A DNA stretch of 64,000 nt, from NCBI GenBank assembly GCA_964453135.1, contig CAYVOL010000001.1, positions 88,895-152,894 on the forward strand. Direction: 5' to 3'. Below are positions 15,518 to 63,672 of the stretch, piece by piece. The stretch's first letter is position 1. Every line of letters begins with the position of its first letter. Both the position numbers and the translations under genes were made by a program. The notes under the pieces are model-generated. The model was not told the DNA's origin. It saw only the letters and a program-made list of their open reading frames with translations, and searched no databases. The DNA is from an uncultured Candidatus Saccharibacteria bacterium (GTDB lineage Bacteria > Patescibacteriota > Minisyncoccia > UBA6257 > UBA9933).

Positions 15518-16141
15518 TTATTTCAACTTGGCGAGTTCTGTTGCGACCTTGTCGTTGTCAATCGCCATATTCGGATCGTCGAACGTATAGCGTACAATCC
15601 CCTGTTTGTCGACAAGAACGAAGCTGTGTCCAGGAAACGATCCGTAGTGCATCGAGGAAGGAACCGCGAGCATGCCGAATTTCCGCGAAACGGATTTGTC
15701 GGTATCGAAGAGCAGCGTCGCCTTTCCTAGTTCTGGCATTTTCTGCACCGCGCTCTGCCAGCTCGACGGCTGGTCTATTACCACCGAGAAGGCAACCGTG
15801 TCCGGTCCCGTAAACCGAGGATCGGTTGCAAGCGATACCATCTGGTTCCAGCACGCGGGGTAACACATGATGCCTTCGTTAAAGAATAACACCGCTTTTT
15901 TCCCTTTCAAGCTCTCATTTGAGTATTCGGTCCCGTTGCGGTCCCGGAGCGAAAATGCCGGAACAGCTTTTCCTATGAGATCGCCATAGGATCCCGAAGA
16001 GTCCGAACCGCCAGAGTGCATTGGATCGCCGGTTGTCCCTCCTGATTGCGAATTTCCGCGGCTCATGAAATAGAAGCCGCCAACGACGAATGCGATGATC
16101 GCGATGCCCGCGACAATTGTTGATGTGTTTTTATTTTTCAT
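15518..16141 (-). CDS. Thioredoxin-fold redoxin (TlpA/ResA/AhpC-TSA-like thiol-disulfide oxidoreductase), membrane-anchored
   Basis: N-terminal TM helix, 'KAVLFFNEGIMCYPACWNQ' CxxC active site, thioredoxin-fold length. Confidence 0.7.
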   Translation of the reverse strand: MKNKNTSTIVAGIAIIAFVVGGFYFMSRGNSQSGGTTGDPMHSGGSDSSGSYGDLIGKAVPAFSLRDRNGTEYSNESLKGKKAVLFFNEGIMCYPACWNQMVSLATDPRFTGPDTVAFSVVIDQPSSWQSAVQKMPELGKATLLFDTDKSVSRKFGMLAVPSSMHYGSFPGHSFVLVDKQGIVRYTFDDPNMAIDNDKVATELAKLK

Positions 16142-17043
16142 GGTTGTTGTTTTTCTTTTTTCCCGCCCGAGGCGGATCCGCCTTCGGCGGAAAGCTGGCG
16201 GATGCCGGTTGCCGCGAGCCAGGCGAAAATCACCACAATGAGAATCGCCCAGACGAACTGCGGCACGCCGCCGATGAATTGGTTAAGCCACATTTGGACT
16301 TTTGTAAGGAAGATGTTCACGTTGATCTGTAATTCGGAATGCATGGCGACATTGCCGGTCAATGCCCATATCAAGGTCAATACGCCCATAACCGCGAAGG
16401 TCGCTCCGGCGAGGAAATCCGATATCCGAAATGTTTTATCTTTTCCGAAGATGCGGACCGTGACTGGCTTCCGCGCACCAAAAAGCCGATCAGTCAAATG
16501 CGAGCGATCAAACATCAAAGAAAGAGCAAAGAGCGGCGCGACCATGCCGAGCACATATGCCAAAGTATAGACGATTCCCCAGAGGTACGACCCCGGGAGC
16601 ATAGAGAGCGCAAGCGCTCCCGCCAATACCGGCGCACAGCAGGTGGTCGCAATGCCGGAAAAAATGCCCAGCATATAAACGGACCCGATGCTTTCCTTTC
16701 CGGTAAGTTCCGGCTTCGGCCGAAACCGCTTCGGTAGCGCAAACCGGCGGCCAGTAAGAAGTGAGATGCCGAGCGCAAGTAGCACTAATCCGATGACAGT
16801 AAAGATTATCGAGTGGTAGCGGCTGAAAATCTGGCCGAGCGCCGAGATGCCAAGTCCGAGCGGCAGGAAAACCGTCATGATGCCGAGAAAGAAAATGAAT
16901 GTCATCAAAAACACCTTCCGACGCGTCCTAAAGATCGAACCGAGATACGACGGCAGAAGCACTGTAACACAACATGGGGCGAAAAGCGCCGCTACCCCTG
17001 CGATGAATGCCGCTATAAGCGATGTGCCAATGAGTATTTCCAT
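16138..17043 (-). CDS. ccdA: Cytochrome c biogenesis protein CcdA / DsbD-family transmembrane thiol-disulfide electron transporter
   Basis: 'FIAGVAALFAPCCVTVLLPSYLGS' and a second conserved Cys ('ATTCCAPVLAGAL') in a polytopic membrane protein. Confidence 0.8.
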   Translation of the reverse strand: MEILIGTSLIAAFIAGVAALFAPCCVTVLLPSYLGSIFRTRRKVFLMTFIFFLGIMTVFLPLGLGISALGQIFSRYHSIIFTVIGLVLLALGISLLTGRRFALPKRFRPKPELTGKESIGSVYMLGIFSGIATTCCAPVLAGALALSMLPGSYLWGIVYTLAYVLGMVAPLFALSLMFDRSHLTDRLFGARKPVTVRIFGKDKTFRISDFLAGATFAVMGVLTLIWALTGNVAMHSELQINVNIFLTKVQMWLNQFIGGVPQFVWAILIVVIFAWLAATGIRQLSAEGGSASGGKKEKQQP

Positions 17044-20867: not shown

Positions 20868-21635
20868 CTATTTTTTCTGAAGAGCGATATCAATGACCGA
20901 TTTGAATACCGAATACGGCTGAGCGCCTTGTACCAACTGGCCGTTGATATAACTGGTGGGCGTGGAATTCACTCCAATTGCGCTTGCTGCATCCCGATCT
21001 TTTTGAACTTGTGAAACATGTTTATTGCCGTCATAGCAGCTCGTAAATGCGTTCACATCGAGCCCTGCCTTTCCGGCCAAACTCACAAAGAGCGTGCGAT
21101 TAAGATTTCCGCTGTTTTCTTTCCCGTCAGCAATTTCGGCCTTATACAATTCATCGTGGTATGCCCAAAATTTTCCCTGGTCTTTGGCACATTCCGCGGC
21201 CGCTCCGGCATTTGTCGATTCCTGCCCGAGAAACTGGAAGTTGCGGAAGACCATTTTTACTTTGCCGATCTTGATATACTCGTCGCGAAGCTGCGGCTCG
21301 ACTTGACTAAACATGCGGCCGCAGAACGGACATTGATAGTCGCCGTATTCAATAAGCGTGACCGGCGCGTTTTGATCGCCCAAAATGACATCACGCCCGC
21401 CGATTTTAAGCGCCTCAGCGAGATTTGCAGATGGCGTCGGCTGATTATTGCCAACTGCCACTTGCTGCGGCGCGCTCCCGCCTGTTGATTTTCCTGCAGA
21501 GTAAATAACCGATCCGGCAATCAAAACGCCGGCGATGAGAATCGAGGCAGACAGCATAAAGCTGTTCGATTGTCTGGATTTTTCTTCTACGATTTGTTCT
21601 TCTTTTTGTTCGTGATGCTTGTGGTGTTCGTGCAT
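20868..21635 (-). CDS. DsbA-family thiol:disulfide oxidoreductase (thioredoxin fold), membrane-anchored
   Basis: 'LIEYGDYQCPFCGRMF' CPFC active site, N-terminal TM anchor, His-rich N-terminus. Confidence 0.8.
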   Translation of the reverse strand: MHEHHKHHEQKEEQIVEEKSRQSNSFMLSASILIAGVLIAGSVIYSAGKSTGGSAPQQVAVGNNQPTPSANLAEALKIGGRDVILGDQNAPVTLIEYGDYQCPFCGRMFSQVEPQLRDEYIKIGKVKMVFRNFQFLGQESTNAGAAAECAKDQGKFWAYHDELYKAEIADGKENSGNLNRTLFVSLAGKAGLDVNAFTSCYDGNKHVSQVQKDRDAASAIGVNSTPTSYINGQLVQGAQPYSVFKSVIDIALQKK

Positions 21636-25971: not shown

Positions 25972-26102
25972 TGTCATTCTTCCCGACCTTCTGTCATTCT
26001 GAATCCGCCAGCCGGCGGAGAAGAATCTCCTTGATTCAACCGGAAAGCTTGCTACTTCGGAACGAGATCCTTCGTCCGCCAACTGGCGGACTCAGGATGA
26101 CG
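25972..26102. repeat. MITE/REP-like nested-palindrome element, copy A (GTCATTCTGA...AAGAATCTC // GAGATCCTTCG...CTCAGGATGAC)
   Basis: Core shared with the seven other copies; internal palindromes CCGCCAGCCGGCGG and CCGCCAACTGGCGG. Confidence 0.6.
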
Positions 26103-57080: not shown

Positions 57081-57206
57081 GTCATTCTAAGTCCCGTCTT
57101 TCCATTCCTCTGTCATTCTGAGTCCCGCTAAGCGGGACGAAGAATCTCATACCGCGGTAATTTCCGGGATGCTGAGCCCCCGCCGTGGCGGGAGCTCAGC
57201 ATGACC
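57081..57206. repeat. MITE/REP-like element, copy C
   Basis: GTCATTCTAAGTCCCG...GTCATTCTGAGTCCCGCTAAGCGGGACGAAGAATCTC...GATGCTGAGCCCCCGCCGTGGCGGGAGCTCAGCATGAC. Confidence 0.6.
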
Positions 57207-57365: not shown

Positions 57366-57947
57366 ATGAAAAGAGACGTGAAGGAAGGACTGCTGGGAGC
57401 AGTAGTGGGAGCGGCGGCGGTTTTGATAGGAGAACAGCTCCTGAAAAAAGCCGGCGCGGCAAGCGCGTCCGGCAACGAGTTTTCCGCGGATATAGCCCGC
57501 GCGAAACTTCAAGACGCCCTTCGACGTCTTGAGGCAAAGAACAAAACCGCGTACCAACGACTGCAAGAAAGGCAAAGGCAGTCGGAGGATCCAGGAAAGT
57601 TCGCCGGTTCACTGAGCAAACTCGTCGTCGCCTTTGACGACAACCCCGAAACGCTTCTAGAAATGCTGGAATGGGCAGGGATGATGGAAGAGCAGGAGTT
57701 CAGCGCTTTTCTTGAAGGCCTAAGCTACGAGCCTTTCGTCTATGTTCTCAAGCGCGCCGGCGTCTATGCCAAAGTCATCTGGGAGAAACTTTATTCCAAT
57801 AGCCCAGATGCGCCGGGGATTCTGCAGAAGATGGATAGGGGGCTCAATCAGCAACTTGGCCCTTTCCTGGAAAGATGGGGAGCAAGCGTCCAGGTGAGAC
57901 AAGACGCCCGAAGGCAAAGGATGGATTCCAGAAGATTCGTCTGGTAA
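57366..57947 (+). CDS. Hypothetical protein, paralog A of the RRQRMDxRRFVW-tail pair (193 aa); SD AAAGGAGAAAGCGGCATG
   Basis: ORF track; strong SD; visibly GC-rich; shares 'IRAKLQD', 'AYQRL', 'LEWAGxM...EFxAFLExL', 'VLKR' and 'RRQRMDxRRFVW' with 59126..59752. Confidence 0.55.
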   Translation: MKRDVKEGLLGAVVGAAAVLIGEQLLKKAGAASASGNEFSADIARAKLQDALRRLEAKNKTAYQRLQERQRQSEDPGKFAGSLSKLVVAFDDNPETLLEMLEWAGMMEEQEFSAFLEGLSYEPFVYVLKRAGVYAKVIWEKLYSNSPDAPGILQKMDRGLNQQLGPFLERWGASVQVRQDARRQRMDSRRFVW

Positions 57948-58145
57948 TTATCGGATTTGCCGAATATTCATAAAAGGCATATAGCACTTATAATATTATA
58001 TCTTAATCATATTGTGGGAGTTTCTTACTCTTTCAGGCTTTAAAATAGCGAGCCCGCCGCTATTATCTGAAGGAGTTTTTTGTTTGTCTTGATTTTATAC
58101 CTGACACTTGTTGCTTGCTTATAGAAGATGACGCGATTCGGAAGT

Positions 58146-58277
58146 GTCATCCTGAGCCCCGTCTTTCTAATTCTTCTGTCATTCTGAGCCCGCCAACTGG
58201 CGGACGAAGAATCTCGTACTGCGACAGAACCAGGGGATTCTTCGTCCCCCGCGCCATGGCGGGGGACTCAGAATGAC
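58146..58277. repeat. MITE/REP-like element, copy D
   Basis: GTCATCCTGAGCCCCG...GTCATTCTGAGCCCGCCAACTGGCGGACGAAGAATCTC...GATTCTTCGTCCCCCGCGCCATGGCGGGGGACTCAGAATGAC. Confidence 0.6.
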
Positions 58278-58464
58278 TTTCCAAACGACGCATGCGGAAA
58301 AAGTCAACCCCGTATATAGCAAATCTGCGCAGATTTGCTATGTGTAAGGTTGACTTTTTCATTAAAATATGCTTTTATAATAGCACGTTCTTCACAATAA
58401 AATATTGGATGATTGCGAACGAATAAGAATATAGATGACAACAACCAACAATGAAAGGAGGGTG

Positions 58465-59115
58465 GCCATGGCCGACAAGCGACAACAGAGAGGACAAAGG
58501 AAGGAATTTCCGGTAAGGATTTTCCTGAAAACCTTATCCCCGCGAAAAGCGGGCGACGTCTATGAGGTGACCGCGGTGGCAACCGTGGTCAAAGGTAAGT
58601 TTCCTCAAGACGGCGTTGCTGTCCAGTTTTTCGTGGACGGCTCGCCGAAAGATTCTGTTGTCGCCGCCGAAAATGGCGGCCGGGCCCTCAAACGGCTTTT
58701 CTTTGAGAAGGAGGGGTTGTACCTGGTTGAAGCCAGAGTAAGCGACCCCAACCTTCCTGGCAACTATGTTGCCAGCGCTGAGGTCAATATCACGGCGGAG
58801 AAGAAAGATCCGCCAAAGCCGGTGGCAGATCTTCTTGTCCGGACATACCAGCTGTCTGCTGGAAAGTTCCGGTTTGAGATTCAGCCGCTGACTGAAAGCG
58901 GCAAGGTGGCTATTGGCGCGGTGGTAGAGATTTTTGACCCCGCGCTTCCTGAGCCGACACGGCAGGCGCTTGAGAAACCCACGGATACGATTTTGTATAC
59001 AGCTGAGGTTTCTCAAAAGGAGAAGTCCAAGACTATCCATTTCTGGGTGATCGGGACCAAGATTGTCAAAAACAAAACAATCTACAACGCCAATGCCGTG
59101 AAGCGTCAGGCGTAA
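58465..59115 (+). CDS. Hypothetical protein (start reassigned to MADKRQQRG after the SD GAAAGGAGGGTGGCCATG); basic N-terminus, beta-rich body
   Basis: The ORF-track frame 58435..59115 has a strong SD 7 nt before the internal ATG at 58465; GC-rich. Confidence 0.5.
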   Translation, partial: AMADKRQQRGQRKEFPVRIFLKTLSPRKAGDVYEVTAVATVVKGKFPQDGVAVQFFVDGSPKDSVVAAENGGRALKRLFFEKEGLYLVEARVSDPNLPGNYVASAEVNITAEKKDPPKPVADLLVRTYQLSAGKFRFEIQPLTESGKVAIGAVVEIFDPALPEPTRQALEKPTDTILYTAEVSQKEKSKTIHFWVIGTKIVKNKTIYNANAVKRQA

Positions 59116-59125
59116 GGAGAGAAAG

Positions 59126-59752
59126 ATGCCACTGGCGAATATTTGGGAATTCCTGGTAAGTGATATTGGCGGGGCTGTGGTGTGGGATGAAGTTCTGAAA
59201 CCCATCCTGAAAGGAGCCGTTGAAAAACACGGCGACAAGATGGGTCAAGTAGTCTACGACAAGTTTTTCACGGACAAAATCCGCGCAAAACTGCAAGACT
59301 ACTTCCGCCTCCTCAGCGAAAGAGGAGAAAGCGGAAGGGCCGCCTACCAGCGGCTAAGGGCCCGCCAGGAAAGGCATCAACGCGACAACACGGAAAATTT
59401 CTTCGTCGAAATGTTGGGGAAAGTTGTCTTGACTTTCGACGGAGAGGATCCCGAGGCCGCCCTGGACATTTTGGAATGGGCTGGAGCGATGAGCGACGAC
59501 GAGTTCAACGCCTTTCTTGAGGCGTTAAACCATGACGCGTTCTTGCAAGTCCTGAAGCGCCTCGGGGGGCACATTAGGTTTGTCTGGAGTAGAATTTACT
59601 CCAGCGACCTGAACGCGCCGGGACTCTGGCAACGCACGAATCAAAGCGTTGACCAGTGGGCAAACCCCTTCCTGAATAGGTGGGAAGGTAATTTACGCGC
59701 GCGACAACAGGAACGCCGACAGCGAATGGACGCCAGACGATTTGTCTGGTAA
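59126..59752 (+). CDS. Hypothetical protein, paralog B of the RRQRMDxRRFVW-tail pair (208 aa); SD AAGGAGAGAAAGATG; 10-nt gap to the upstream gene
   Basis: Shares the same conserved blocks as 57366..57947. Confidence 0.55.
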   Translation: MPLANIWEFLVSDIGGAVVWDEVLKPILKGAVEKHGDKMGQVVYDKFFTDKIRAKLQDYFRLLSERGESGRAAYQRLRARQERHQRDNTENFFVEMLGKVVLTFDGEDPEAALDILEWAGAMSDDEFNAFLEALNHDAFLQVLKRLGGHIRFVWSRIYSSDLNAPGLWQRTNQSVDQWANPFLNRWEGNLRARQQERRQRMDARRFVW

Positions 59753-59778
59753 ACCGATATCAAGCAAGGGAGGAAGTC

Positions 59779-60738
59779 ATGCATAGCATACTGCAAGCGT
59801 TGTGGTTTTTAGTTCAAGAAGTATGGGAGATAGCCGGCGCAGGCGTGGAGTTCACCCAGGTTATTACGAGGGTGAACAGCCACGGCCTCAGCGACCGGCA
59901 GATTTACCTCGCTGGCTTGAGACGCCTGGCGATTCTCGTTATCGTATTGCCCATCCCGCTCTTGGGAGCCAGCATTTGGCTCGGCGGGAGCTGGGCGGCA
60001 TCCGCGGGGATGATCTGGGCAGTCGCTTTTCTCTTGTTGTCTTTGGTCGCCGCCCCGATCGGGATGATTGTGGCGGCCCTGGGCAGTACAACGAGGGAGA
60101 GCGGGGAAAAATATGTGCGGGTTGTGCTATCAGTAGTATTTTCAGAACTGCTGGTAGCATTCTTCCTAGCTGTAGTGCCGATCAGAAATAATATATCGGC
60201 GCTACCCCTGCTAGCGTTGTGCGCGTTTATCATCATCCTTGCCGGAATGAAATTCCTCCGGAAAGGTTTGGTGATTGCGGCAGTGGCGGCATTTGCCCTG
60301 CTGGTGTTTTCGTTCTTCTTCCCAAGGACGTTTGAGCAGAAGATTGCTCCGTCCTTTGAGCGGTTAGATACCCAGATGGCGGCGGCGCCACCCGTGGCGA
60401 CTTCTGCGCCAGCGCAGCAACCCGTTACCGCGGCGCTTCCATCTCCGGCAAGGATTTATCCTAACTACAAGTTCGACCTTGTGGATAGGATTGAAGTTCC
60501 CCTATTGCCGGCTGGGCAAGTGCTTCCGCATGAGGCCGGGGGGTGGGTTATCCTCCCGATGGGAGCGCGCTACCGAGTAGACTACGATACGCCGGTCGTC
60601 ATTGAGTATAATGACGGCCGGAGATTCATACGCCGGCCCAATGAACCCGCGTTTGACGGGGTTCAGCCGGGCAACGGCATTTTCCGTCTTTACGGAGAAA
60701 ACGGCCAAAAAGCCGTTGTAACCATCCGCAAGGACTAG
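59779..60738 (+). CDS. Membrane protein, hypothetical: about six TM helices, a Pro/Ala-rich linker, and a C-terminal soluble domain of about 110 aa; SD GGGAGGAAGTCATG
   Basis: ORF track; hydrophobicity pattern; last gene before a canonical terminator. Confidence 0.5.
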   Translation: MHSILQALWFLVQEVWEIAGAGVEFTQVITRVNSHGLSDRQIYLAGLRRLAILVIVLPIPLLGASIWLGGSWAASAGMIWAVAFLLLSLVAAPIGMIVAALGSTTRESGEKYVRVVLSVVFSELLVAFFLAVVPIRNNISALPLLALCAFIIILAGMKFLRKGLVIAAVAAFALLVFSFFFPRTFEQKIAPSFERLDTQMAAAPPVATSAPAQQPVTAALPSPARIYPNYKFDLVDRIEVPLLPAGQVLPHEAGGWVILPMGARYRVDYDTPVVIEYNDGRRFIRRPNEPAFDGVQPGNGIFRLYGENGQKAVVTIRKD

Positions 60739-60769
60739 TTCTTTTTATCGGAAAGGAGGTGATTAATAA

Positions 60770-60810
60770 CCCCCATTGTTCGCGAGAGCAATGGGGGCGT
60801 TTTTATTTTA
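60770..60810 (+). terminator. Rho-independent terminator (stem CCCCCATTG/CAATGGGGG, then CGTTTTTATTTT)
   Basis: Read from the sequence, 32 nt after the stop at 60738. Confidence 0.65.
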
Positions 60811-60837
60811 AGCCAGACAAGTTTTGTTTATTTAAAA

Positions 60838-60882
60838 AGATTCATCGCCCCCCGCCATGGCGGGGCGGGGCTCGGAATGACG
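60838..60882. repeat. MITE/REP-like element, single half-module (copy E)
   Basis: GATTCATCGCCCCCCGCCATGGCGGGGCGGGGCTCGGAATGAC. Confidence 0.5.
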
Positions 60883-60938
60883 ACAAAATTTCAGAGAACT
60901 ACGCGCCACTTAATCGCAATGCGAAAAGCGTTAAAGAA

Positions 60939-61334
60939 TTACACGCCTCTTAAAACGCTATCAACAAAATCAGGCAAACCGTAAGCCACGAGTCCTATGG
61001 CTATGGCAATCACTGCCCAAAGCAAGGCCTGCTTCGCCTTATCATAATTTTTAGGGTCTGTCGCGCCAAACAAAAAAAGATAGGCGGCGTAAAAAACAAA
61101 ACCAATGGCGAAAATCCAGAAAGCGGTGGCAAACCATTTTAAAAGATTGCGAAAAAGACCCAAAACGCTTCCGCTTCCCCCTTCAACTTGAATAATAGGG
61201 CTATTTCCGGGGCCGGGAGGGCTCACTTGAGTAACACTAACATTATCAGCAAAAGAATGGCGCGGCGCTACTATGAAATACGCGGCTGTAATAACGATAG
61301 AAAAAATGAAAAACAAAGAAATAAGATTTTTCAT
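60939..61334 (-). CDS. TrbC/VirB2-like small two-TM 'pilin' family protein, paralog 1 (131 aa)
   Basis: Signal/TM helix, then 'LKWFATAFWIFAIGFVFYAAYLFLFGATDPKNYDKAKQALLWAVIAIAIGLVAYGLP', the pattern of the type IV secretion pilin family that is frequent in Patescibacteria (family assignment from recall). Confidence 0.5.
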   Translation of the reverse strand: MKNLISLFFIFSIVITAAYFIVAPRHSFADNVSVTQVSPPGPGNSPIIQVEGGSGSVLGLFRNLLKWFATAFWIFAIGFVFYAAYLFLFGATDPKNYDKAKQALLWAVIAIAIGLVAYGLPDFVDSVLRGV

Positions 61335-61351
61335 AAAGATTCTCTTTATCG

Positions 61352-61462
61352 GTCATTCCGAGCCTAGCCACGGCGGGGTGAGGAATCTTGACAGATTCTT
61401 CGCCCGCCTCCGCCCAGCCACAACGGGGTCATAGTGGGGGCGGAGGCGGAACTCAGAATGAC
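61352..61462. repeat. MITE/REP-like element, copy F
   Basis: GTCATTCCGAGCCTAGCCACGGCGGGGTGAGGAATCTTGACAGATTCTTCGCCCGCCTCCGCCCAGCCACAACGGGGTCATAGTGGGGGCGGAGGCGGAACTCAGAATGAC. Confidence 0.6.
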
Positions 61463-61476
61463 AATTTACCTTAATA

Positions 61477-61791
61477 TTATGGATTAAGAATGCTCTGAAT
61501 AAGCGCTGGCAAGCCGTAAACTAAAATTCCAACTGCCATTGCGATAATGGTGTAAAGCAATGCCCTTTTTGCCTCATCGTATTTTTTCGCATCCTGAGCG
61601 CTGAACAAAAAAAGATAGGCGGCGTAAAAAGCAAAGCCGATGGCAAAAATCCAAAAAGCGGTGGCAAACCATTTTTGGAATCGGTCTAAAATCGTAATGA
61701 CCTGCTGCAAATTTTGCGGCCCTCCGCCATCGGCTAAGGCGACAGAAAAAGGAATTATTAAAAGTGATACGGCAACAAAAAATTGAGACAT
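61477..61791 (-). CDS. TrbC/VirB2-like pilin family protein, paralog 2 (104 aa)
   Basis: 'FQKWFATAFWIFAIGFAFYAAYLFLFSAQDAKKYDEAKRALLYTIIAMAVGILVYGLP'. It shares a roughly 70-nt near-identical DNA stretch with paralog 1. Confidence 0.5.
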   Translation of the reverse strand: MSQFFVAVSLLIIPFSVALADGGGPQNLQQVITILDRFQKWFATAFWIFAIGFAFYAAYLFLFSAQDAKKYDEAKRALLYTIIAMAVGILVYGLPALIQSILNP

Positions 61792-61919
61792 AATTTAAAA
61801 ATTTAAAAGTATCGCGGAATGATTATTGAAATGCGCCAAACAATATCGTTATCGTTGCCGACTCCGTTTGCGGGTGAAATAACCGGCGCAAAAGCGGAGA
61901 CGGCAACAATTTTTTAAGT

Positions 61920-62297
61920 TTATTGCCCTTTAAGAAACTGATCCACCAAGAAAGGCAACCCGTAAGCCATTAAACCTATGATTATGGCGATAACGGCGTA
62001 AATCAAAGCGGTCTTTCCTTTCTGATGGCCGTCTTTGGAATGCGAAGCGAACAAAAACAGGTAAGCGGCGTAGAAGATATACCCCACGGCAAAAATCCAG
62101 AAAACAGTGGCAATCCATTTCAGAATAGTTCTGAGAAGTTCTAATGTGCTATTCACACTGCCTATTTTATATCCGGGATTTGTTAGTGGAGCCGTTACCG
62201 GATTTCCTATATTAGCCGTTTCAGCCGCGGCTCCCAAAGGAAAAACCGAAACCGCCGTTAAAGCCAGCAGCAAAACAAAAAATATCTTATTTCTCAT
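61920..62297 (-). CDS. TrbC/VirB2-like pilin family protein, paralog 3 (125 aa)
   Basis: 'LKWIATVFWIFAVGYIFYAAYLFLFASHSKDGHQKGKTALIYAVIAIIIGLMAYGLP'. Confidence 0.5.
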   Translation of the reverse strand: MRNKIFFVLLLALTAVSVFPLGAAAETANIGNPVTAPLTNPGYKIGSVNSTLELLRTILKWIATVFWIFAVGYIFYAAYLFLFASHSKDGHQKGKTALIYAVIAIIIGLMAYGLPFLVDQFLKGQ

Positions 62298-62366
62298 ACA
62301 ATTTATCTCAGTTAACGTTTTCTCAATTAACGACCTTTGAATTGTTTCCAGTATAACACATCATCC

Positions 62367-62678
62367 TTAAACTGTCAGCAATTCTCTGATAATTGCCACG
62401 ATTCCGTAAGCGCACCAGATAGCGGCGTAGCCGATAATCGCCCATTTCAGAGCGTTTGTTCCCTTTTTATATTCTTCGGGTTTGCCTCGGGAAAGAAGCA
62501 TCTGAAAAGCCGCGTAAATAACCATTATAACAAACACAAGAGTAAAAAGACCCATACCGGTGCTGATTACTTTCTGCAAGATATCATTCAAATCATTCCT
62601 GCCAAGAGGATTATAAATTCCGCTGCCCGTGCCGCCTTCCGTTTGAGCTAAAACTTTTTGAATGAGAAGATTTAACAT
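62367..62678 (-). CDS. TrbC/VirB2-like pilin family protein, divergent paralog 4 (103 aa)
   Basis: 'GMGLFTLVFVIMVIYAAFQMLLSRGKPEEYKKGTNALKWAIIGYAAIWCAYGIVAII' shows the same architecture of two TM helices with a short charged loop. Confidence 0.4.
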   Translation of the reverse strand: MLNLLIQKVLAQTEGGTGSGIYNPLGRNDLNDILQKVISTGMGLFTLVFVIMVIYAAFQMLLSRGKPEEYKKGTNALKWAIIGYAAIWCAYGIVAIIRELLTV

Positions 62679-62735
62679 TTTAAGTGAGAGTTATGGCGCT
62701 GTTTGAAAACTTCGACAGAATCAGCTTCTGTTTTT

Positions 62736-62863
62736 GTCATTCTGAGCCCTCCGCCGTGGCGGGGGCGAAGAATCTCTTGATTTTACATTAGCACGAGATC
62801 CTTCGCTTCGCTCAGGATGACATGATGGATTCTTCTCCGCCGGCTGACGAATTCAGGATGACG
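62736..62863. repeat. MITE/REP-like element, copy G
   Basis: GTCATTCTGAGCCCTCCGCCGTGGCGGGGGCGAAGAATCTC...GAGATCCTTCGCTTCGCTCAGGATGAC...GATTCTTCTCCGCCGGCTGACGAATTCAGGATGAC. Confidence 0.6.
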
Positions 62864-62884
62864 GTTTTCGAACAACGCCGAGAA

Positions 62885-63298
62885 TCATTGACAATTAATA
62901 CTGTTCCATGGTCCTAATCCTGGCCCGAGAACAGCCGGACCGCCGCCCAATGACGCGCCCATTAAAATTTTAATCGTAGTATCAATTATGAGCCAAGCGG
63001 CTAAAATAATTACAAAGCCGACAAGCGCCGTGCGAATGGTTTTTAACCCGCTTTGATATAAGGGCGGGTTGGCTCCGGCCACCAACATTTTAATTCCTCC
63101 CCAGACCATAAACGCCACAGCCAAAGAAGCGGCGATTCCTAAAACAAAATTATAAACATTTTGAAACAGCTTAAAAAAATTACAGAAGGTGCACATCGCT
63201 CCGCTTCCTCCGGGCCCGCAAGGCACCAAGGCGGCGCTGGCGGCGTTGACTGTTAAAAAGAAAAATAAAATTGCGGCGACAGTAAAAACGAAATTCAT
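62885..63298 (-). CDS. TrbC/VirB2-like pilin family protein, divergent paralog 5 (start moved to MNFVFTVAAILFF so that it does not run through the MITE); Cys-containing N-terminal region
   Basis: 'LAVAFMVWGGIKMLVAGANPPLYQSGLKTIRTALVGFVIILAAWLIIDTTIKIL'. The N-terminal 79 codons in the ORF track are the translated MITE copy H. Confidence 0.45.
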   Translation of the reverse strand: MNFVFTVAAILFFFLTVNAASAALVPCGPGGSGAMCTFCNFFKLFQNVYNFVLGIAASLAVAFMVWGGIKMLVAGANPPLYQSGLKTIRTALVGFVIILAAWLIIDTTIKILMGASLGGGPAVLGPGLGPWNSINCQ

Positions 63299-63359
63299 TA
63301 TGTAATTTAGTTGTAAGATTCCGTAGCGTTGTTTACGCTTTTCATCGTTGTTTTTGATT

Positions 63360-63489
63360 GTCATTCTGAACGTTTTCGTCATCCTTCGCCCCCCGCCATG
63401 GCGGGGGGCGAAGGATCTCGCAAGATTCTTCGCTACGTTTAGAATGGCAAATGGATTCTTCGTCCGCCAGTTGGCGGACTCAGAATGAC
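63360..63489. repeat. MITE/REP-like element, copy H
   Basis: GTCATTCTGAACGTTTTCGTCATCCTTCGCCCCCCGCCATGGCGGGGGGCGAAGGATCTC...GATTCTTCGTCCGCCAGTTGGCGGACTCAGAATGAC. Confidence 0.6.
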
Positions 63490-63672
63490 AACGGGGCGTC
63501 AGAAATGTAATGGTCAATGTTTGAAATACAAACAACACTCTGATTTCTTACAAATTTAGTTTATCATTTTGCGCGCAATAGGGCAATCCCTTAGTTGACT
63601 TTTAGCTTCTGGCTTTTAGCTTTTAGTTTTAATTCTACATTCTAAATCCTATATTCTATCCAATCTAGTGAT

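Follow-up and report, generated by a model that had tools for sequence, protein, structure and literature searches.

Five pilin genes in a compact array

Toward the end of the 64,000-nt stretch of Candidatus Saccharibacteria DNA analyzed here, which as a whole is referred to as the window, five small open reading frames (ORFs) form a tandem array at positions 60939–63298, all on the minus strand and packed into 2.4 kb. We number these pilin paralogs by rising window coordinate: P1 (60939–61334; 131 aa), P2 (61477–61791; 104 aa), P3 (61920–62297; 125 aa), P4 (62367–62678; 103 aa), and P5 (62885–63298; 137 aa), of which P4 belongs to a subtype with an NPLG motif and P5 to a Cys-rich subtype. In a Pfam scan, every one of them exceeds the gathering cut-off of 26.6 bits for PF18895 (T4SS_pilin), with scores of 31.9, 27.9, 28.4, 48.0, and 43.7 bits from P1 to P5 and E-values of 1.4e-7 to 1.4e-12; other, weak matches to membrane families accompany these hits. 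By family membership, the five proteins are classed as pilins of the type IV secretion system (T4SS), that is, as VirB2-like pilins, and the closest loci that carry organism names come from metagenome-assembled genomes of Patescibacteria and Saccharibacteria. The original prediction of a five-gene, minus-strand array of T4SS-type pilins from the family expanded in Patescibacteria is thereby borne out. Independent assemblies from two sequencing runs (L001–L003) are 100% identical to window positions 59304–63410, intergenic elements included, so the array is not an artefact of assembly.

Pairwise amino acid identity among P1–P5 spans 21–54%, with the maximum between P1 and P2. At least two pilin genes of low mutual identity, placed in tandem or with one non-pilin gene between them, are what defines an array in a survey that applied PF18895, PF04956, and CONJScan profiles to 3,035 Patescibacteria genomes and found 441 arrays of 2–11 VirB2-like pilin genes in 383 assemblies, at a mean identity of 25% and a maximum of 54% (Quinonero-Coronel et al. 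2025, Microb Genom, PMC12102498). The locus is thus a new example of arrays that have already been published, and an expected feature of such genomes. Among NCBIfam models, the best match for each of the five proteins is NF045849 (E 4e-8 to 6e-4), with the hairpin covered, at scores of 30.0, 24.2, 28.6, 32.8, and 19.5 bits for P1–P5, all short of that model’s 40-bit cut-off. A scan of genome collections with P1–P3 returned only two distant loci, and a word-indexed homologue search with P4 only two proteins; a profile of all five proteins matched 34,512 of 1.84 billion cluster representatives at E ≤ 1e-3. PHROGs offered no match for three of the pilins, and tblastn against plasmid and phage collections found none, which leaves the array with no link to known mobile elements.

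The start of P5 deserves comment. Its open frame continues to a GTG at 63538, and the public gene call (P0015; 217 aa, 62885–63538) follows it there, over-extended into a palindromic element of the kind described below. Since the additional 80 codons cross that element, while the match to PF18895 and the signal peptide both start only at the ATG at 63298, this ATG is most likely the real start.

Hydropathy analysis resolves each product into a leader, a variable segment of 5–40 residues, and two hydrophobic helices around a short, charged, Lys-rich loop (DPKNYDKAK, DAKKYDEAK, SKDGHQKGK, GKPEEYKKG, and ANPPLYQSG). Four of the five leaders are ordinary Sec leaders ending in A-x-A (HSFA/D, ALA/D, AAA/E, and ASA/A, the slash marking the predicted cut). 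In P1, for example, the Sec-type signal peptide ending HSFA/D gives way to a variable Pro/Gly-rich segment of ~30 residues and then to the helical hairpin. The leader of P4 is short and noncanonical, comprising the 11 residues MLNLLIQKVLA, and is conserved in P4o, its orthologue on the Logan contig L004, whose genes are distinguished by an appended “o”. AlphaFold2 models concur with hydropathy in the predicted architecture of leader, two-helix hairpin, and short charged loop: that of P1 (predicted local distance difference test score, pLDDT, 81) places helices at residues 2–26, 57–89, and 94–128 and leaves 27–56 unstructured, and that of P5 (pLDDT 76) has helices at 2–22, 34–73, and 78–112. 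The N-terminal segments are the most divergent part of the paralogs. The P5 type is further marked by tail cysteines, the N-tail reading VPCGPG..C..C and the C-tail GPWN..C, and these are kept in P5, P5o, and the related protein P0125. Their conservation fits a predicted topology in which both tails lie outside the membrane. As a separate observation, the window carries extracytoplasmic thiol-redox genes on the minus strand at 15518–17043 and 20868–21635, encoding a redoxin of the AhpC-TSA type, a DsbD_TM protein, and a DsbA-like thioredoxin; this cluster could serve the tail cysteines of P5-type proteins.

Age of the paralogs and exchange between them

The L004 contig presents a fresh view of the array’s history. 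Its genes run from P5o, which is truncated where the contig stops, through P4o and P3o, two inserted non-pilin genes, P2o, and P1o to a convergent cassette. Identity between P1–P5 and their respective counterparts is 57, 64, 54, 63, and 68%, such that each orthologue is at least as close as any paralog within the genome, where the P1/P2 pair is the highest at 54%. Five orthologues in the same order, at identities equal to or above those between paralogs, imply that duplication came before the two lineages separated and that each paralog has been retained since. A recent duplication giving rise to P1 and P2, one of two origins suggested for the sequence they share, is ruled out by these one-to-one relationships. 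In our assessment, the five are probably T4SS-type pilin genes of the PF18895, VirB2-like family of Patescibacteria that duplicated long ago and lie as an array on the chromosome.

More distant relatives are organized along similar lines. Counting L004, tandem arrays of two to five genes are present in L004–L006, L008–L012, L014, L017, and L018: three genes each in L005 and L009–L012, two in L006, which is from a Saccharibacterium, and four or five in L017 and L018. A XerC/D-like protein encoded near the array in the window is 66% identical to one in L005.

Against this background of ancient divergence, P1 and P2 have in common a block of approximately 70 nt within helix 1, as originally predicted. 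The block in P1 (61071–61140, minus strand; codons 66–89, KWFATAFWIFAIGFVFYAAYLFLF) is identical to its partner in P2 (61606–61675, minus strand) at 65 of 70 nt; over the 24 codons, identity is 66/72, compared with 60% downstream and 38% upstream, and the same P1 block is only 83% identical to that of its own orthologue, P1o. Synonymous sites follow suit: among degenerate residues that are identical in P1 and P2, the codons are also identical in 16 of 21 cases inside the block versus 9 of 27 outside (Fisher p=0.0036). The pattern extends beyond the block. In the N-terminal half of P1, 38 sites side with P1o against P2 and 11 with P2 against P1o, whereas from the block onward the balance shifts to 19 with P1o and 33 with P2 (Fisher p=4.8e-5 for the N-half versus the rest), bearing in mind that the N-segments of the paralogs align poorly and that the 8:2 sites of the block do not reach significance on their own. 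An analogous exchange is apparent in L004, where the hairpin-coding half of P1o lies nearer to that of P3o (p=3.8e-5) and both genes carry the block variants AIAFWIFAAGFIF. Judged from these site patterns, neighboring paralogs have undergone gene conversion or recombination in the half of the gene that encodes the hairpin, and this accounts for the block better than recent duplication does. Of the pair of origins put forward in the original prediction, conversion is therefore the one that stands.

The gaps between the genes hold a second layer of detail. A terminal motif, GTCATTCTGAGC, occurs 23 times in the window when up to two mismatches are allowed, against 3.6 expected, and 0 of 100 shuffled sequences reach that number. 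It marks palindromic elements of modular build, in which an outer GTCATTCTGAG, a CCGCC..GGCGG hairpin, and an inner GAAGAATC are followed by their mirror image. Seven full copies in the window are bounded by terminal inverted repeats (TIRs) of the GTCATTCTGAG type, measure 86–132 nt, and fold at −49 to −70 kcal/mol (z −4 to −9). Full elements sit exactly where copies of a miniature inverted-repeat transposable element (MITE) had been predicted: between P2 and P1 (61352–61462; 111 nt, TIRs GTCATTCCGAG and CTCAGAATGAC, RNA fold −63 kcal/mol, z −6.9), between P5 and P4 (62736–62862, composed of an 86-nt unit at 62736–62821 plus an extra half-unit; −48.9 kcal/mol, z −4.0), and upstream of P5 (63360–63489; 130 nt, −70.2 kcal/mol, z −9.3). 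A half copy downstream of P1 (60831–60881) folds no better than shuffled sequence (z −1.1), and further full copies lie at 57081–57205, 58146–58277, and 25993–26101. Six of the seven full copies fall in the last 7 kb of the window, bracketing the pilin genes and the adjoining cassette (post hoc binomial P=1e-5).

Comparison with L004 is again instructive: its P5o–P4o and P2o–P1o spacers are 3 and 5 nt, versus 206 and 142 nt in the window. Spacers this short indicate that the elements were inserted into, or have been lost from, an originally tight operon. The terminal motif is absent from both L004 and L006 and present in the related Patescibacterial locus L005. Being short, noncoding, multicopy, TIR-bounded, and variably present at orthologous sites, the elements have the hallmarks of MITEs; no direct repeats indicative of target-site duplication flank them, and no transposase is seen in the window, so that REP-like (repetitive extragenic palindromic) is an equally good label. 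The literature that we searched yielded no description of such an element for Patescibacteria. We suppose that the structured elements at the P5/P4 and P2/P1 junctions probably split the tight operon into transcripts that are separately stabilized or terminated.

Do these features amount to a machine for varying the cell surface? The original prediction read the array as a locus generating surface-protein diversity, in which interchangeable paralogs would be shuffled by gene conversion, and perhaps by MITE-mediated recombination, so that a changed exposed surface could adapt to host strains or evade their defences. The idea of antigenic variation was raised for such arrays by analogy with the VirB2 paralogs of Bartonella and Anaplasma (PMC12102498), and the mosaic signals in P1 and P1o, together with the N-terminal segments being the most divergent part, speak in its favor. 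What is exchanged, however, is the conserved membrane hairpin, and not the variable, exposed segment. Further, the paralog set is stably inherited, as five one-to-one orthologues in unchanged order in L004 attest; the two sampled populations are identical across the array, and hence nothing shows active diversification; and no silent or truncated donor cassettes, invertible promoter, or diversity-generating retroelement were seen. The homologous array of Candidatus Southlakia epibionticum is essential (PMC10633639), which argues for nonredundancy. We consequently regard a variation locus as an unlikely account of these genes, and that element of the original prediction is not upheld.

Secretion machinery, fused hairpins, and the pilin assignment

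The 64-kb window is a stretch of ordinary chromosome, largely housekeeping in content. It encodes, for instance, ScpA, NusG, GyrB, an ABC transporter, a P-type ATPase, BipA, IF-2, a Mur ligase, Ddl, HtrA, ClpB, an RNase J-like protein, transketolase, and the XerC/D-like recombinase, along with nine tRNAs; an Rfam scan of the window recovered tRNAs only, and no rRNA gene. No VirB4, VirD4, VirB6, VirB3, or VirB8 family was recognized anywhere within it. Every ORF of at least 428 aa belongs to another family, such that the window is without VirB4 or VirD4, and the smaller ORFs fall into housekeeping families or have no match. Neither a secretion ATPase nor any further T4SS part is recognizable there, and the pilin genes are accordingly not situated beside virB3/virB4 or mating-pair-formation genes.

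Their neighbors are instead, upstream, the C-terminus of a PolX gene and, downstream and convergent, an uncharacterized four-gene cassette on the plus strand (57366–60738), made up of genes at 57366–57947 (193 aa), 58435–59115 (226 aa), 59126–59752 (208 aa), and 59779–60738 (319 aa). The 193-aa and 208-aa proteins are paralogs, both ending ..RRQRMDxRRFVW; none of the four products has a match in Pfam, NCBIfam, or PHROGs, and the cassette’s GC content is ~0.51 compared with ~0.45 for the window. The predicted physical linkage between array and cassette is real: the two are adjacent, and the same convergent orientation recurs in one close relative, L004, where a 210-aa orthologue, 53% identical to the 226-aa protein, occupies the same position. 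Between cassette and array lies a GC-rich hairpin terminator on the plus strand (60770–60797), with a 12-bp stem and a following T-run, that is conserved in L004. A perfect Shine-Dalgarno-like GGAAAGGAGGTGAT immediately follows the stop codon of the final cassette gene, ahead of this terminator (60748–60797); the arrangement is kept in L004 (3026–3154), no conserved ORF follows it, and read on the pilin strand the site resembles the 3' tail of 16S rRNA (CACCUCCUUUC). The analysis found no tandem repeats.

Beyond the window, one neighborhood recurs around related arrays in several Patescibacteria: a Lactamase_B_3 gene, gyrA, in some cases a methyltransferase, an SBP_bac_1 solute-binding protein, the pilins, and a XerC/D-like recombinase. 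It was observed at L006:4387–9132 (a Saccharibacterium), L009:1–10267, L012:1836–8867, and L018:3560–11543, with no VirB4 within 8–10 kb of the pilins. On the groundwater contig (L009:1–2397), the gyrA beside the array has a match to an intein-splicing domain.

How would the array work? Drawing on published work on the family, we envisage that Sec inserts the pilins so that the basic loop stays inside while both tails project from the membrane, and that the leader is cleaved after A-x-A. A monoderm T4SS resembling the MPF-FATA class of mating-pair-formation systems, driven by VirB4 and with its genes located elsewhere in the genome, would draw on the resulting pool of membrane hairpins to yield a pilus-like surface structure for contact with the host cell. 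The variable N-segments and the tails would be its exposed parts. Because five divergent paralogs are individually retained, they may well be distinct, nonredundant subunits and not interchangeable variants, in keeping with the essentiality of the Southlakia array.

Several observations weigh against this scheme. One is the relationship to canonical pilins: PF04956, the TrbC/VirB2 family, matches none of P1–P5 at E ≤ 1, and a 30-sequence profile (A3) compared by hhalign with F TraA and Agrobacterium (A. fabrum) VirB2 reaches probabilities of 0.2% and 0.1%, respectively, so that by these comparisons there is no detectable sequence tie to canonical VirB2, TrbC, or TraA. The label “TrbC/VirB2-like” thus has the support of PF18895 and not of the classical profile. 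A profile search of PDB sequences found no pilin, only nonspecific helical hairpins, and two fold searches likewise gave only generic helical hairpins. To this are added the lack of a recognizable T4SS ATPase or channel gene in the window, noted above, and the fact that no pilus built from PF18895 pilins has been visualized in any Patescibacterium (PMC12857230). With the sequence tie to canonical pilins so weak, the pilin assignment rests on PF18895 membership, architecture, and published genomic and genetic evidence.

The family’s fused members raise a further difficulty. Many of the strongest profile hits are what we term polypilins, single ORFs in which one signal peptide precedes 2–8 in-frame PF18895 hairpin repeats, as exemplified by P0011 (606 aa, seven repeats), P0012 (552 aa, six repeats), and P0013 (820 aa, eight repeats). 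They are embedded in arrays of single-hairpin pilins (L017:1777–3435; L018:10001–11128), precomputed Pfam annotation gives them a faint PF04956 TrbC match beside PF18895, and NCBI names one fused member by the NF045849 label of a pilin-like conjugal transfer protein. Polypilins are not mentioned in the 2025 survey (PMC12102498). Proteins with several fused hairpins are not readily reconciled with the idea of a simple filament subunit.

One response is that “pilin” describes no more than a shape, and that the proteins are membrane-resident two-helix modules—a hetero-oligomeric ring, the lining of a channel, or the scaffold of a T4SS or other envelope machine. The 2–8 hairpins fused behind a single signal peptide would suit a polytopic membrane protein of that kind, and both the missing sequence tie to VirB2 and TraA and the presence of arrays in housekeeping contexts in several lineages, with no VirB4 within about 8–10 kb, point the same way. 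Yet canonical VirB2 too resides in the membrane before assembly, polyproteins could be cleaved to monomers, and the fused proteins are the very ones with faint TrbC matches. Pilin genes also lie beside virB4 in 1135 of 1948 Patescibacteria assemblies (PMC12102498). On balance, we rate a nonfilament role as improbable, marginally more so than a variation locus.

A related and tentative proposal takes the mosaicism and the fusions together. The hairpin module may work as a side-by-side membrane hetero-oligomer, in which the helix–helix interfaces are kept matched by gene conversion between neighboring paralogs and, in some lineages, by fusion (up to eight hairpins), leaving the outward-facing N-segments to diverge; we would give this about the same low credence as the variation locus. 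Were it true, the arrays would encode not alternative pilins but an envelope structure of several defined subunits, or else a polyprotein that is processed to supply a mixed pilus. The arrays beside gyrA and a solute-binding protein, at a distance from virB4, would in that case hint at a role in uptake from the host.

Two remaining possibilities can be set aside briefly. Patescibacteria do carry type IV pili used for host attachment, but that P1–P5 are type IV pilus or type II secretion-type pilins, processed by prepilin peptidase, is refuted by their sequences: the proteins have two membrane helices in place of one N-terminal helix and a globular head and match no type IV pilus family in Pfam. 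A class III signal peptide, in which a short basic leader closes with Gly and F/M-T-L-[IL]-E comes next, is absent from all five, and four have Sec leaders. Chance hydrophobic reading frames or misassembled repeats, which the shortness and hydrophobicity of the proteins and their weak membrane-family Pfam matches might bring to mind, are ruled out by the curated cut-off, the 54–68% orthologues, the thousands of homologues, and the identical assemblies.

Significance and relation to known systems

Few envelope components have been shown to be essential to a cultivated Patescibacterium living as an epibiont, and T4SS-type pilins belong to these. The evidence comes from Candidatus Southlakia epibionticum, where a series of pilin genes in the T4SS cluster is essential (Wang et al. 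2023, Cell, PMC10633639; reviewed in PMC12857230); the same 2025 review treats a T4SS pilus in these monoderms as a possibility. The current picture of Patescibacteria pilin arrays is unchanged by the present locus. What the locus and its relative L004 add is an old set of individually conserved paralogs, membrane hairpins that exchange sequence while the exposed N-segments do not, and mobile palindromes that can split an operon. Together, these features favor distinct subunits of one structure over interchangeable variants. Polypilins, in turn, bear directly on what the PF18895 family builds.

Known systems resemble the array to differing degrees. The canonical pilins, VirB2, RP4 TrbC, and F TraA, are likewise small, membrane-stored proteins with a long leader, two hydrophobic helices, and a short basic loop, but by PF04956 and hhalign P1–P5 share no detectable sequence similarity with them. 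Canonical pilins serve diderm systems, are encoded by one gene per system beside virB3 and virB4, and are cyclized or acetylated. Nearer in cell type is the NF045849 family (Mbov_0395/MMCAP2_0565), a pilin-like conjugal transfer protein from the integrative and conjugative elements of Mycoplasma and thus from a monoderm conjugation system, although P1–P5, being below its cut-off, are not members of that equivalog.

The intergenic elements have counterparts of their own. Correia, RUP, ERIC, and BIME sequences are MITE- or REP-like intergenic palindromes of bacteria, and the window’s elements are like them in being noncoding, ~90–130 nt long, bounded by terminal inverted repeats, strongly folded, multicopy, intergenic, and variable between relatives. 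The elements described here differ in their modular build and in that neither target-site duplication nor a cognate transposase is seen.

Tandem amplification and divergence of pilin genes, tied to host interaction, is also known for the VirB2 genes of Bartonella and Anaplasma (as cited in PMC12102498). Those, however, are bona fide PF04956 VirB2 proteins of diderm pathogens of eukaryotes, and the antigenic variation proposed there is unsupported here. In Candidatus Southlakia epibionticum ML1, six genes lie inside the T4SS cluster SEML1_0006–0019 and are essential by transposon sequencing (PMC10633639), whereas the five genes here are placed between PolX and an uncharacterized cassette, the likeness between the two arrays being drawn from descriptions. 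The closest parallel is with the arrays of the 2025 survey (PMC12102498). That account mentions neither hairpin mosaicism nor MITE-like interleaving that splits close gene pairs, both of which are found here, and the present array has no virB4 within the 64-kb window, as ~40% of the survey’s assemblies likewise lack such proximity. In its small, very divergent tandem pilins (21–54% identity here), chromosomal and often without a nearby relaxase, the published type is the one that this locus resembles.

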